A stretch of 63,388 nt of DNA, counting the filler, from Stramenopiles sp. TOSAG23-6 (Eukaryota): assembly GCA_900128565.1 (NCBI GenBank). It is 51 parts of 51 records of this genome, joined end to end, with 100 filler letters (N's around TTAATTAATTAA, not from the genome) between each part and the next. Parts side by side here need not be neighbours in the genome. Positions count along the whole stretch, not along the records: positions 10,013 to 11,162 come from LT639598.1; positions 11,263 to 12,412 come from LT639599.1; positions 12,513 to 13,662 come from LT639600.1; positions 13,763 to 14,911 come from LT639601.1; positions 15,012 to 16,160 come from LT639602.1; positions 16,261 to 17,409 come from LT639603.1; positions 17,510 to 18,658 come from LT639604.1; positions 18,759 to 19,907 come from LT639605.1; 43 more parts are not named here. One strand, given 5' to 3'. The translations under genes and the position numbers were made by a program. This document shows positions 9,913 through 62,252 of this stretch, piece by piece (the first letter of the stretch is position 1; each line of letters starts with the position of its first letter). The notes under the pieces were generated by a model. That model did no database searches. It was not told where the DNA came from and worked only from the letters and a program-made list of their open reading frames with translations.

Positions 9913-10101
9913 NNNNNNNNNNNNNNNNNNNNNNNNNNNNNNNNNNNNNNNNNNNNTTAATTAATTAANNNNNNNNNNNNNNNNNNNNNNNNNNNNNNNN
10001 NNNNNNNNNNNNTTCAAAAAAAAAACTTAAATTCGTTAGGTACAAAATTTCGTATGAAAAATAAATTCGATTTTTTTGTGAAAAAAAATAATAAAACATA
10101 C

Positions 10102-10900
10102 ATGATCTTGGATTATCTCGATGTTTTAATTTCCCAAGTCCTAAAGAAGGCAATGAACTCTGGAATAAACACAATTTACCACATGTATTGTAGAATATAT
10201 ATATATATAAATGATTGTTGTATTGTGTTATTATTGTATTATGTTTGTGTGTGTGTACAGTAAGTACGTCTACATATATTTTTTTTTTTGATTTTTTTAA
10301 TTTTTTAGAAAACAAAAAAAAAACGAAAAAAATGAAAAAAAAATATTTCGTGTAAAAAAAAAAAAAAAAGATATAGACAAGATACCTATATGATGCATTA
10401 CTTGGAATGCGCTCTGAAGTGCAGTTCCCATTACTGTTTCAACCTCACGGCTACCTTCAAACATTGAAGGCAACTGCTGCAATAAAAGATCAATTTGCTT
10501 TCTGGAATCTTTTAAGTTCACTAAGAGATCATCTGGTGCAGGTAAAAAAACATCCGATATCTCAGATACAACCAACATTTGAGGTTGATTTAATTGAGGT
10601 TTTAAATTGTAAAAATGAATGGATGAATCGAAAGTTATAAAACCAACTTGAGTCCTTGGTGAACCTGGTAACTTATCAAGTGATTCTGTTATAGCTTGCA
10701 AAGCGCAACGGAGCATACCAGACACTTGAGCGTTGTACGAAACATCCAAAACATACAAAATTAAAAATATGACAAATCAAGATTTTCTTTTGTAAGTCTT
10801 TAGTTCTTTTGTTTGTATAACAAAAATTAGATACTATATATTTTTTTTTTCTGTGTAAAAAAAAAATCTTTAAAAAAACAAAATCTATGAAAAATCTCTG

Positions 10901-10935
<35 letters not shown>

Positions 10936-11105
10936 TGAAACGTTCATAATAAACATTTTACATACAAACATATACGCAGGAGCTTGAGGAGGGCGGACCA
11001 TATACTCTGCAGGTGCAACAATTTCAACCTGACCACGACGTAATTCAGGCCTTTCTTGTAAATCTGTACGACGTCCTTCTTTTCCAATATGGCAGAAATA
11101 AGCGG
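10102..11105 (-). CDS. SEC24: COPII coat protein Sec24, three internal exons (11105-10966, 10752-10386, 10182-10102)
   Basis: Spliced product reads YFCHIG..GRRTD..ERPEL..G.VE..AP.EYMVRPP.AP.YMF|VLDVS...RTQVGFITFDSSIHFYNL...HHIG|GKLCLFQSSLPSLGLGKL. Confidence 0.93.
10183..10385 (-). other. GT-AT intron (Sec24)
   Basis: AG|GTATCTT...TTCTACAATACAT|GTGGTAAA gives HHIGGKLCLFQ. Confidence 0.8.
10753..10965 (-). other. GT-AT intron (Sec24)
   Basis: TTT|GTATGT...TTTTGTAT|GTTTTGGAT gives YMFVLDVS. Confidence 0.8.
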
Positions 11106-11262
11106 ATGTATTGTGAAAAAATATTTCAAAAAAAAAAAAAAATTGTTAGGTACAAAATTTCGNNNNNNNNNNNNNNNNNNNNNNNNNNNNNNNNNNNNNN
11201 NNNNNNTTAATTAATTAANNNNNNNNNNNNNNNNNNNNNNNNNNNNNNNNNNNNNNNNNNNN

Positions 11263-12412
11263 ACTCCTGACAGACAACATACACGAATTGTGGAAGACGT
11301 TGGAGAATAGGATGGAGATATCTTTTCCCCATGCCTTGAGGGATCGCGTTTTGATGCCATTATGTTTCTTTTCATATTCGAATCACTTGTGTTGCCATTA
11401 TGTAGCTGTGAAGCACTATCTGCACTAGGAATGGTCGCAGCATAATTTTTTGGGGCAAATGCTCCCACGTCACAGACAGGTGTGGACGTATAAATCTTAT
11501 AATAAATGGTAGGTGGAAAGACATATCCACCAAGGCGGAATCGAACATACATTTTACATGCTGGATCCATTAAATTTGCTTCAGATCCATTTATAGAACG
11601 TAAAATTTTTGCTGGGTCACCGGAATTGTGGAAACGAATCAAATCACGATAATATTTATATATCCTTCTATTTGCATGAGACCTCCACTGATTCTGCACC
11701 AAAAGGGCTGCTTTAATTTCTTTATCTTTATATTTTTTGCGACTCATGTATTTTGGAAAAATATTTCAAAATTCTGCTTCTAATCGTTTTGATGCGCGAT
11801 ACACATACTGTATTTCCATTGCTGCTATATGATAAATTGTAAACCTTTGCCATGTAAAATGACGGCGTAATCGCCACATCCAATACGTTGCTTGTATTTT
11901 TGAAGCAGCAAATCCTTCAATTCCTTCCTTTGAATATGTATTTTGGAAAAATATTTCAAAAAAAAATCGTTAGGTACAACATTCCGTACGAAAAAAAAAA
12001 CGAATTTGAAAAAAAATAAAACATACATTCCGAAAGATATTTCATGTACTGCTCCTGAAAAGGTAATGCTCTAATCCATTTGGACTCTACTTTTTCTATC
12101 TTATTAATTCGGGGACCTTCCCAACCTGTCAATAAAACGCGCTTTCGGGCGTAGTGTCCACGAAACTTTGTTTGAATGATTCGCACAGCTAAACTTTGGG
12201 CAGCCATTGGCATTTTCCATGGTTCGCGGATGATATCCAATGTAGTTTTTTTACCCATACGGGCAAATGAGGACATCCATATTTTAGTTAATCCCATTTT
12301 CTGTGGAATGTATCTCCCTTCTTTCTTTAATTTGCGTTCAGCTCGCCTTGCTTTTCGACGTTCTTCTTTTGTAGTCCCGGCATTCAGACGTTTTTTTTTC
12401 TTTTTCTTTGGA
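11263..12412 (-). CDS. IQ-motif protein, C11orf65/MFI-like, multi-exon, partial
   Basis: Several IQ motifs plus YYRDLI.F...GDP..ILRSIN..EA.L.D.A...VRFRLGG..FPP.IYYKI. Confidence 0.8.
11936..12026 (-). other. GT-AT intron, near-consensus copy (91 nt)
   Basis: GAAT|GTATGTTTT...TTCGTACGGAATGTTGTACCTAACG...GAAATATTTTTCCAAAATACAT|ATTC puts the IQ motif AASKIQATYW in frame. Confidence 0.85.
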
Positions 12413-12512
12413 NNNNNNNNNNNNNNNNNNNNNNNNNNNNNNNNNNNNNNNNNNNNTTAATTAATTAANNNNNNNNNNNNNNNNNNNNNNNNNNNNNNNN
12501 NNNNNNNNNNNN

Positions 12513-59679: not shown

Positions 59680-59809
59680 NNNNNNNNNNNNNNNNNNNNN
59701 NNNNNNNNNNNNNNNNNNNNNNNTTAATTAATTAANNNNNNNNNNNNNNNNNNNNNNNNNNNNNNNNNNNNNNNNNNNNTTTTTTTTTTTTTTTTTTAAA
59801 ATTTTTTTT

Positions 59810-59840
<31 letters not shown>

Positions 59841-59915
59841 CAAAAAAAATTGTACCTAACAAATTGTACAAAAAAATTTGTACCAAAAAAAAAAAATATA
59901 TTTTTCACAATACAT

Positions 59916-60829
59916 ATGAAATTCAAATGTTTCAGAGAATACAATCAAATGTGGCAACGTTGATGTCTCATATTGAATCGTTCGAAATTTGGGGTAATTT
60001 AGAAAATATCGAATTGTCAAGAGATGCAAACAAAATACGAAAATCAGTTATTTCATCTCTTTTATTATTATCAAGAGCATGTATGTTTTTTTTTTTTTTT
60101 TGAATGATTTTTTGTTTTTTTTTACGAAATTTTGTACCTAACGATATTTTTTTTTTTTTGAAATATTTTTCCAAAATAAATGTGGTCCGAAACACAAATG
60201 GATAGAATGGTTACAAATTAAACAAAAAGAAGAAAAACACAAAATAGAAAAAATAACAAAAAAGAAAAAAAAGAAGCGAAAAAAAAAATTCAAGTCAAAT
60301 ATTTCAGTTGTATTTGAACCTACTACTTATCATACAACAAAAAAAGACTTTTCTTTACATACTACAAATGCAACAAATACAATAAATGCAACAAATGATA
60401 ATACAAAAAACACAAAAAACACAAAAATCACAAAAAACACAAAAAATACAAAAAATACAAAAAATACAAAAAATATTAAAAATGTCGCACAACGAGCAAC
60501 AAACAAGTTAAAATTATATGTAAAATCTACACATTTGCGAAAACAATCTGACACCACAATGTCAATGCAATTAGCTATTTGGCATGTATGTTTTTTTTTT
60601 TTTTTTTACAAAAAAGTCGAATTTTTTTTTTCATAGTAAATTTTGTACCTAACAAAAAATTATAAAAATATATTCTTTCACAATACATTTAGGTATTGAA
60701 GATTTTATTGAGGAAATATTAAAAATCCCAATGCATCATTTAATGGCACGAAATAATAAGGGTGAAATTGTAGTAAATCATAGTACTAGGGTTAGGGATA
60801 CTCAAGAAGAAGAAAAAATGGACATACAT
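59916..60829 (+). CDS. Hypothetical Lys/Asn-rich protein, three exons (GT-AT introns 60081-60181 and 60586-60688)
   Basis: The frame is continuous through both junctions with AT acceptors; the nearby AG at 60691-60692 leads to a stop. Confidence 0.7.
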
Positions 60830-61088
60830 GTATGTTTTTTTTTTTTTTTACAAAAATATTGAAATTTTTTTTTCATAGTAAATTTTGTACCTAACAAAAA
60901 AAAAAAAAAAAAAAAANNNNNNNNNNNNNNNNNNNNNNNNNNNNNNNNNNNNNNNNNNNNTTAATTAATTAANNNNNNNNNNNNNNNNNNNNNNNNNNNN
61001 NNNNNNNNNNNNNNNNGTTTCATACGAAATTTCGTACCTAACGATTTTTTTTTTTTACAATTTAAATTCGTATTTTTTCACAATACAT

Positions 61089-62039
61089 GTAGCATCAGAA
61101 AATACAAACTTGGAATCATCTGAATCTACGACGCAATTTGATACTAGACAAAAAGAATATGATACAAATTATGGTACAAACTATGATACGAAAGAGACGG
61201 ATATACACAATGTTACTATAGATAGTAATAATAATGGAAAAGGTTGGTTAACAAAAGCACAAGCAGATTTGTGCCATGGAGGAATTGCACGTACAACAAT
61301 TCGTGTTGGAGATATTCGAAAAGGGAAGAAAATTGCTACAAAAATGGGTAATATTGTATTATTATGTCAATGTGCAAGTATTTTAGAATCTATGAAACAA
61401 TATCAAGATGCGGCTGAATTATATGAAGAAGCACAAAAATTTGAAGATGCAACGGCCTTATATATAAAAACAAAAAATTTCACAAAAGCTGCACCTCTTA
61501 TGTCAAGAATAAAATCGACAAAGCTACATTCTCAATTTGCAAAAGCAAAGGAAGCAATGAAGGATTATGAGGAAGCATCAGTTGCTTATGAACGTGCAAA
61601 TGATATGGATTCTGTAGTACGTTTGTATCTATATAACTTAAATTTACAGCATAAAGCAATATCTATTGTGAGACGGAATCATTCTTCCACAAGTGCTGAT
61701 TTAGTAGCTGCGTATTGTACAAAATCAGGAGATTCTCTTGGTGCAATTGAGTTTCTTCTCATGGCAAAGCGATCCGAAGAAGCATTTGATATAGCCGTTC
61801 AGAGTATTGAGGGTATACAGGTGTATGCTGATGCATTGAAGAATAAAGGTACAGCCGAAGAATTTACAAAAGTAGCTAAATTTTATGAAAAGAAGAAAAT
61901 GTATGCAAAAGCTGGTGAATATTTTTCATGTTCAGGTCAATATAACAAAGCATTAAAGTATTTCTTATTATGTGGCGAAAAACAAATTGATGCAGCTATC
62001 AAATTAGTTGGTGAAGCGAGGTCTGATATGTTGACTCAT
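61089..62039 (+). CDS. WDR19: Intraflagellar transport protein IFT144/WDR19, internal exon
   Basis: GIARTTIR.GD...G, C..ILE, KLH.QFAKAKE, DSVVRLYL, A..VA, AIEFL, AG.YF...GQY.KALK.FL.C. Flanked by a CAATACAT| acceptor and a CAT|GTACGT donor. Confidence 0.92.
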
Positions 62040-62252
62040 GTACGTTTTTTTTTCTTTACATTTCGAATTCACTTTTTTTTTTTTTTTTTTTTTTTTCATA
62101 CGAAATTTTGTACCTAACAAAAAATTTTTACTAAAAAAAAAAAAAAATATTTNNNNNNNNNNNNNNNNNNNNNNNNNNNNNNNNNNNNNNNNNNNNTTAA
62201 TTAATTAANNNNNNNNNNNNNNNNNNNNNNNNNNNNNNNNNNNNNNNNNNNN

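Follow-up and report, generated by a model that had tools for sequence, protein, structure and literature searches.

GT-AT introns of one introner-like family and the AT at their exon ends in Stramenopiles sp. TOSAG23-6

We find that nearly all introns in a window of 63,388 bases (about 30% G+C) from the genome of Stramenopiles sp. TOSAG23-6 (assembly GCA_900128565.1), the window being the whole stretch of DNA analysed here, are copies of one short mobile, introner-like family, and that this family is spliced as GT-AT. The (C/A)AG exon-end bias of U2-type introns is not seen: AG precedes only one of the 38 donors that we placed, and AT precedes 25. An equal G-to-T swap at the last base of the exon and the last base of the intron, put forward in a preliminary description of this DNA, is borne out at both positions, with 24 of 26 complete introns ending in AT. 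As to its origin, we see about an even chance that exon-end AT is primarily an insertion footprint of the intron family, left either as an AT target or as a 2-bp duplication.

The window is no single stretch of chromosome, being composed of 51 contigs of 1136-1152 bases, sorted by size and linked by N44-TTAATTAATTAA-N44 (e.g. the linker at 1153-1252). Four contigs (1-1152, 24998-26144, 29984-31128 and 38689-39830) recur as identical copies, two or three each, and were entered once in the donor counts. The resulting sample is 58 kb of short contigs in which a repeated intron family is possibly over-represented, and as contig breaks at repeats may over-sample that family, the donor counts given below are not equal to a genome-wide logo. 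Our catalogue of 38 donors comprises 26 complete introns, with both ends within a contig, and 12 introns cut by a contig end or a run of Ns. Automatic placement of introns by open frames alone proved too permissive and chose wrong frames, and the catalogue was consequently curated by eye in three-frame views; homologue alignment is the basis of 7 of the complete introns, and reading frames alone are the basis of the other 19.

All 38 introns begin with GT, the donor consensus being GTAYGT followed by T at +7 to +9. Immediately upstream of the donor stand AT (25), TT (4), GT (3), CT (2), and AG, GG, AC and TC (one each). Base by base, 34 of the 38 have T at exon -1, 27 have A at -2 and 23 have C at -3; the AT-ended exons finish in CAT (15), TAT (6) or AAT (4). 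These figures agree almost perfectly with the preliminary description, which had counted about 39 donors, some 25 of them preceded by AT and more than 30 by T, and which named the same single AG-preceded donor, at 10385. Its further claim that the pattern extends over all three phases also holds, the 14 complete introns preceded by AT falling into phases 0, 1 and 2 in the numbers 5, 5 and 4. As background we took the 1330 GT sites in the longest open reading frame (ORF) of each of the 38 contigs with an ORF of at least 450 bases, where GT is preceded by AT in 11.4%, by T in 36.4% and by AG in 5.3% of cases. Over this background, both AT (binomial p = 3.4e-15) and T at -1 (p = 1.5e-11) are in excess at exon ends, whereas AG, at 1/38, is at the background level (p = 0.72). 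It is thus the customary enrichment of AG that is missing, rather than AG that is depleted.

Such a pattern might instead stem from composition, codon usage or chance, or from an assembly or curation artefact, given the low G+C content, a fragmentary assembly with duplicated contigs and one palindromic contig, and a catalogue curated by eye. However, AT stands at 66% against 11% in the background and T at 89% against 36%; the excess is present in all three phases, and an uncurated tally of GTAYGT on both strands, duplicates included, returns the same 25 AT (with T before 42 of 75). We therefore give this explanation almost no credence. Two donors, 17299 and 50491, sit in tandem GTAT/GTAC steps, and choosing the other cut would lower the count of AT to 23-24 of 38. 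Exon-end AT is found at 14 of 16 GTATGT donors, 5 of 12 GTACGT donors and 6 of 10 others, and the difference between GTATGT and all other donors together (11/22) has p = 0.036. It is also found in 11 of the 12 introns cut by a contig end or run of Ns versus 14 of the 26 complete ones (Fisher p = 0.03); most of the cut introns stop at a contig end, probably where highly repeated, near-identical copies break the assembly.

Turning to the 3' end, AT closes 24 of the 26 complete introns and AG the other two, A occupies -2 in all 26, the base at -3 is a pyrimidine in 21, and the next exon begins with G in 15, the consensus being TTCACAATACAT and then G. The two AG-ended introns finish ...ACAG and ...AAAG where the remaining copies have ...ACAT. 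Seven junctions, six AT and one AG, are backed by the proteins of relatives. In a Sec24 gene, tblastn segments of a relative's full-length Sec24, P0002, adjoin gaplessly on either side of two minus-strand introns, 10753-10965 (exon end TT, intron end AT) and 10183-10385 (exon end AG, the only one, with donor GTATCT and intron end ACAT). In the former, the 34 bases that separate an in-frame TGA from the exon contain no AG, and an AG acceptor is consequently impossible. Segments of P0121 likewise meet on the plus strand of an ABCD-type transporter gene, at residues 885/886 across intron 16453-16555 (exon end GG, donor GTACAA, GT-AT) and at residues 963/964 across intron 16791-16952 (exon end AT, intron end TTAT). 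As the cut may be shifted only by -1 to +2 and 0 to +2 in the Sec24 introns and by -2 to 0 in the family introns, GT...AT is the sole cut allowed at every junction. On contig 22504-23650, three plus-strand junctions fit homologues of about 50% identity, two as GT-AT and one as GT-AG. The first intron, 22860-22948 (exon end AT), is gapless against the 50%-identical P0123 and P0124; the second, 23018-23122 (exon end GT, intron end AAAT), gives a split codon restoring a Tyr conserved in P0123-P0125, with a 2-residue length difference nearby; the third, 23215-23363 (exon end CAT, intron end AAAG), is gapless against P0124 and allows no in-frame AT.

The Sec24 locus also bears on existing gene models. 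Its exon 10387-10752 (minus strand) is 82% identical to P0002 and 99% identical to a public coding model, P0001, whose source name points to a MAST-3 marine stramenopile and is the basis for calling the present organism MAST-3-like. On 10013-11162 (minus strand), P0001 translates intron sequence and skips a conserved VLDVS segment, and it appears to have been forced onto canonical splice sites. Since the model runs into introns and omits conserved residues, standard prediction fails here.

Further support for the AT ends comes from reading frames, although frame checks are not independent of the curation. A script that located both catalogue ends independently placed the consensus 3' AT in frame in 10 of 11 cases, the eleventh being undecidable because a run of Ns follows. 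Of the 26 complete introns, 25 can be removed to leave a frame open over 30 codons on either side, and the one exception meets a stop after 27 codons, as a last exon would. No in-frame AG occurs within 45 bases of 11 of the 24 AT-ended introns; where one is present, it lies 6-45 bases downstream and would remove coding sequence. Between the branch-like box described below and the cut, 2-11 AT dinucleotides are skipped, and at least one AG is skipped between a strict box and the cut in 11 of 20 AT-ended introns, which argues that the cut is defined by an extended motif and not by the first AG or AT. No splice joints were found on contig 44898-46038 in RNA libraries (four seawater libraries with 5-8% of the words of 43657-53483). 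The RNA covering this contig is mostly in the form of 39-48-base contigs at the conserved core of the intron; the exons are represented by two pieces of 151-155 bases, and this cover decides neither whether the gene is spliced nor the choice at 45084 between AT and the AG six bases further on. At 44898-44975 and 45132-45170, hundreds of these 39-48-base RNA contigs pile up on the intron core in three of the libraries, with a summed depth of up to about 29,000 where exon depth on the same contig stays below 10; the pile could stem from transcription of many copies, from introns either retained or excised, or from carried-over DNA.

A shift of the boundaries by two bases would turn the exon-end AT into the intron start and make these AT-AC introns, of U12-type or U2-type. 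Where AT ends the exon and ACAT the intron, cutting two bases earlier indeed gives an identical messenger RNA, and terminal A with C is a known compatible pair; U12-type introns reportedly include AT-AC and rare GT-AT termini. The shift is nevertheless impossible in the 12 complete introns without exon-end AT, four of them validated by homologues, and it fails also for the intron with donor at 45187 (intron end GTAT) and that starting at 16791 (TTAT). The donors read GTAYGT and not RTATCC, 31 of 38 having G at +5, the branch-like box is 33-110 bases away from the 3' end rather than 10-26, and Rfam searches of the window returned no minor-spliceosome RNA. We thus regard misplaced boundaries as very unlikely. 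The U12 type in particular was rejected: the introns share with it a non-AG terminal pair, but neither the RTATCCTT donor nor TCCTTAAC at 10-26 bases from the end is found, the consensus of donor and branch and the distance from branch to 3' end are at odds with it, and only two donors are GTATCT.

That the introns form one family is apparent from their alignment. A search for TACTAAC-like boxes returned 50 sites whose flanks can be aligned over about 100 bases, and an nhmmer profile built from 12 copies recovers 44 copies in the window. With ^ marking the cut, the shared layout is (C)AT^GTAYGTTTT ... TTTGTACCTAAC (a branch-site-like box) ... T-rich run ... TTCACAATACAT^G, or with the internal blocks spelled out, (C)AT^GTAYGTTTT ... 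CGAATTT ... CRTACGAAATTTTGTACCTAAC ... T-run ... GAAATATTTTTCCAAAATACAT^. Complete introns are 89-216 bases long, and in 21 of the 26 a TAYYTAAC box lies 33-110 bases before the 3' end with T runs after it; judged by its sequence, the box TACCTAAC is a candidate branch point. Host genes vary (Sec24, the ABCD-type transporter, WD40, metalloprotease, PH/PDZ and others), and many contigs terminate within a family copy, as is expected if near-identical repeats break the assembly. Putative terminal inverted repeats are limited to GTAT...ATAC, or ATGTAT...ATACAT with the flanks, beyond which only T/A runs are common to the two ends.

This layout, with a 2-bp direct repeat and short inverted ends of which one repeat remains, is formally like that of the TA-bounded sequences eliminated from ciliate DNA, and the copies might accordingly be excised from DNA instead of being spliced, AT being the retained repeat. 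Every copy, however, has full spliceosomal signals (GTAYGT donor, TACTAAC-like box and T-run), those whose host gene can be determined are all in sense orientation, and we know of no nuclear dualism in stramenopiles, and we find excision at the DNA level scarcely credible.

Outside the window, an exact 20-mer of the family core has no match in metagenome contigs. A gapped pattern of donor plus box has 15 metagenome matches, none of them a family member by profile (best 12.5 bits), and the loci inspected among them end in AG or are unrelated. Two marine metagenome loci of about 30% G+C, L014:5529-5650 and L015:500-700, share an intron-like stretch with GTATGT, TTTGTACCTAAC and an ordinary ...TTATAG end; a comparable branch-like box, from a different organism, is here coupled to a canonical 3' end.

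Pairing between the intron ends themselves, AU^GUAU with AUACAU^, could in principle draw the two splice sites together and keep the exon AT within a helix at the RNA level, an arrangement proposed for the non-conventional introns of euglenids. Positions -2 to +3 are pairable in a fixed register in 17, 22, 21, 21 and 20 of the 26 introns respectively, and a terminal helix appears in the minimum-energy fold of three of five copies. Covariation is nevertheless absent, since 4.62 of 8 positions pair between an intron's own ends and 4.65 between ends swapped among introns (permutation p = 0.72), and fold energies resemble those of shuffled sequences (z = -0.43, 0.28, -0.14, -1.55 and 0.02). The conserved borders, the lack of covariation and the fold stability no greater than that of shuffles also set these introns apart from those of euglenids, and a helix is in our view an improbable cause of exon-end AT.

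Recognition that the introns belong to one mobile family, which the preliminary description had missed, shifts the balance toward an insertion footprint. Family copies would land in (C)AT^G sites, producing the same dinucleotide before the intron and at its end, either because insertion duplicates 2 bp (AT) or because the element targets AT and brings the 3' AT itself, alternatives that our data cannot separate. After insertion the exon copy of AT would not be strictly required and may drift, 13 of the 38 exon ends being no longer AT, and the intron copy (24 AT and 2 AG among 26) would be retained because it is used as the spliceosome's 3' splice site. The same C/T/A-A-T pattern is indeed common to both sides, before the donor and at the intron end. 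Three homologue-validated GT-AT introns follow exon ends TT, AG and GG, which argues that exon-end AT is dispensable for splicing, and together with the mobile family and the shared trinucleotide pattern this leads us to prefer the footprint. By sequence, ATGTAT...ATACAT would have the form expected of short terminal inverted repeats flanking a palindromic 2-bp site. The nearly universal exon-end AT of the cut introns fits a footprint as well, as does the association of AT with GTATGT donors if subfamilies have specific target sites; this association fits equally a see-saw in which weaker donors need more pairing with the exon.

Several observations weigh against a footprint. In the locus-specific match test of Gozashti et al. 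(as given in the available text of PMC9860276), exon and intron ends match at -1, -2 and -3 in 20, 16 and 10 cases against 20.5, 16.0 and 10.7 expected, and no match above shuffled pairs is found at eight positions on either side, although a constant 2-bp AT duplication is invisible to this test. Of the two causes that the preliminary description had derived from the shared swap, a target-site duplication or a compensatory U1 change, the former thus shows no locus-specific signal, with that same limit on the test, and the swap itself stands. All 12 complete introns with a non-AT exon end still end in AT. The inverted repeat spans just 4 bases (about 8 if one gap is allowed) and overlaps the splice signals. 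Among the 13 non-AT donors, T at -1 has outlasted A at -2 (nine against two), which hints at selection more than at neutral drift, and the flanks (C/A)AT^G differ from the ordinary proto-splice site MAG^G at a single base, a coincidence that would be strange if a transposase had chosen the target. No age gradient is seen among complete copies, whose profile scores average about 32 bits with an AT exon end and about 31 without, and in these short contigs we could demonstrate neither an empty site nor a copy that is antisense or clearly intergenic.

Some of the same observations would be explained by co-adaptation of the spliceosome, in which U1, and perhaps U5 loop 1, pairs with AU at exon -2/-1 and selection maintains AT, above all its T. 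Taking the canonical U1 5' end as reference, the U1 of this organism would then be ACGUACAUG-like; the family may have supplied the first AT-flanked introns, with the pattern now being functional. Consistent with this are the T at -1 that 34 of 38 donors have regardless of donor type and phase, and the retention of T nine times against two for A among the non-AT donors. So is the see-saw, as GTATGT would pair more weakly with a U1 having G opposite +4 and is the donor most often preceded by AT (14/16, against 5/12 for GTACGT). The flanks, moreover, are canonical MAG^G in all but -1, and the change at the 3' splice site is identical. A precedent exists in the tunicate Fritillaria borealis, in which, according to the available text of PMC13326754, 95% of introns depart from GT/AG at 5' sites and 3' ends, and adaptation through U2AF paralogues and changed U1/U6 modification is proposed. 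The resemblance to our introns lies in the genome-scale departure from GT/AG; here, by contrast, GT is kept in 38 of 38, only the 3' base is changed, and the organism belongs to another eukaryotic group.

Yet 13 of the 38 donors lack AT, and the three validated introns with TT, AG or GG exon ends tell against co-adaptation too. Small nuclear RNA (snRNA) genes were not found within the window (Rfam, E up to 1), the four weak matches being unrelated, and we know of no single component that reads both exon -1 and intron -1. We hold co-adaptation, the principal rival of the footprint, as the cause of exon-end AT only tentatively. It is likewise possible, if somewhat doubtful, that position -1 has shifted from G to U genome-wide at the exon end and the 3' splice site, with co-evolved machinery and driven by the burst of a single mobile intron; under such a shift, the U1 5' end would pair with AU^GUAYGU, an altered 3'-site recognition would skip AG and cut after ...ACAU, and nature would here offer a spliceosome whose rule for terminal nucleotides has changed. 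Whether footprint or co-adaptation is correct, 3' splice-site specificity in this organism must differ from the norm.

Introners, the transposon-like intron families of Micromonas, Aureococcus, dinoflagellates and others, are AG-flanked and derive a splice site from duplication or target, and the ambiguity between these two is described in the available text of Gozashti et al. 2022 (PMC9860276). The introns of the window resemble them in that many similar short introns occur in unrelated genes, with a dinucleotide repeated before and at or in the intron, and in being ambiguous between duplication and target site by the criterion of that text. They differ in carrying AT and not AG, and so a non-canonical 3' splice site, in showing no locus-specific duplication, and in their very short inverted ends. 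Relative to U2-type introns of the form MAG^GT and YAG^, they share C/A at -3, A at -2, G at exon +1, the GT donor, the TACTAAC-like box and the T-run, but have T in place of G at -1 on both sides, AG ending only two of 26 introns and preceding one of 38 donors. Introns of Trichomonas and Giardia have extended conserved 3' motifs that end in AG and include the branch site. A long 3' motif (here TTCACAATACAT) similarly marks the end of our introns, with upstream AT and AG passed over, whereas here the branch-like box is separate, about 45 bases further upstream, and the motif ends in AT. We found no report in the literature searched of GT-AT introns as a main class, nor of MAST-3 introners or splice sites; the available text of the MAST-3 genome papers (PMC5778133, PMC8163842, PMC12614181) has no passage on splice sites, and their supplements may have intron statistics.

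The 19 complete introns placed by reading frame are distributed over both strands. On the plus strand, a tentative GT-AT family intron, 17572-17662 (exon end TT), has an nhmmer match and an upstream frame of 20 codons with two frames open. At 27893-28032 (exon end AT), a GT-AT intron with a tandem partial family copy has a profile match, as does the GT-AT intron that directly follows a metalloprotease HExxH motif, 28207-28330 (exon end AC). A WD40 gene contains the GT-AT intron 34210-34329 (exon end GT). The remaining plus-strand GT-AT introns are 54870-55013 (donor GTACTT, exon end AT, short upstream exon), 55373-55548 (exon end AT, with a run of Ns inside), 55621-55724 (donor GTATCT, exon end TT), 60081-60181 (exon end AT, intron end AAAT) and 60586-60688 (exon end AT). 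The minus strand carries the family intron 11936-12026, with AT at both exon and intron end, the consensus 3' end in frame and a profile match, and the GT-AT intron 29592-29698 (donor GTTCGT, exon end AT), likewise matched by the profile, whose frame is set by sequence repeated on both sides of a run of Ns. A GT-AT intron at 44197-44292 (exon end TC) precedes a short last exon. Two family introns with exon end AT lie close together, 45084-45187, ending in AT (GTAT) with an in-frame AG 6 bases downstream, and 45320-45439, ending ACAG where other copies have ACAT, in which only the AG cut keeps the frame open. Further minus-strand GT-AT introns are 48867-49005 (exon end AT), 49369-49511 (exon end CT, intron end AAAT), 52525-52675 in a PDZ-like exon pair (exon end CT), 52792-53007 (exon end TT) and 53197-53343 in a PH-like domain (donor GTAGGT, exon end AT).

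Of the incomplete introns, all but one follow an exon ending in AT. Profile matches identify as family members, cut by the contig end, 10013-10101 (donor 10101), 44898-44991, 48621-48727 and 52344-52428 on the minus strand and 60830-60916 and 62040-62152 on the plus strand, together with 43217-43279 (plus), cut by a run of Ns. Also on the plus strand, family introns reach the contig end at 17299-17409, where a tandem GTAT run offers alternative donors at 17291 and 17295, and are cut by it at 34700-34861. An intron at 50491-50537 (plus) is cut by a run of Ns, and its alternative donor, 50487, would give TG; a donor at 51103-51113 (minus) sits at a contig end. The exception is the GTACGT donor at 55807-55812 (plus), with exon end GT, whose 3' end was not placed.

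A few family copies depart from the usual layout. Two introns, 27560-27718 and 27902-28032, each contain two tandem partial copies of the family's 3' two-thirds. At 43667-43731 (minus strand), a copy has GC in place of GT at the 5' end; an Mps1-like kinase exon stands about 80 bases away on the plus strand, and the copy may be antisense inside an intron of the kinase gene or belong to a chimeric contig. The last 26 bases of the family (...GAAATATTTTTCCAAAATACAT) are present at 11745-11808 (minus strand) between two IQ-motif exons, the rest of the element being missing; this is either a 64-base intron starting from an in-frame GTATGT within apparent coding sequence or a largely deleted intron. 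As regards the assembly, contig 58542-59679 is its own reverse complement over its full length, probably a chimera from whole-genome amplification or assembly, and at 24998-26144 a polyketide-synthase-like acyltransferase exon bears scattered single Ns, a pattern that a merger of two alleles or two cells would give. Telomere-like hexamers, (CCCTAA)2-3 or (TTAGGG)2, occur at 22 places, duplicated contigs included (e.g. 28221-28232, 34007-34018, 37063-37080, 53221-53232 and 57610-57627), partly within ORFs, where they read as Asn-Pro repeats, and partly within introns.

The AT-ending rule breaks standard gene prediction. For two MAST-3 single-cell assemblies, the available text of PMC5778133 gives 3289 and 2694 genes in 19-21 Mb, counts that are low for the assembly size and for which non-AG introns may be a cause. 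If they are, functional inventories of these abundant uncultured grazers and parasites would be biased, and claims of gene loss may have to be revisited. That exon end and intron end run parallel, AT/AT here and AG/AG elsewhere, also bears on the old question of whether proto-splice sites reflect an origin by insertion or duplication, or a preference of the machinery, as both signals can be traced here with a different base. Finally, routine GT...AT splicing past upstream AGs would let nature itself serve as an experiment on the reading of the last intron base by the spliceosome, and on the extent to which this reading is able to shift.

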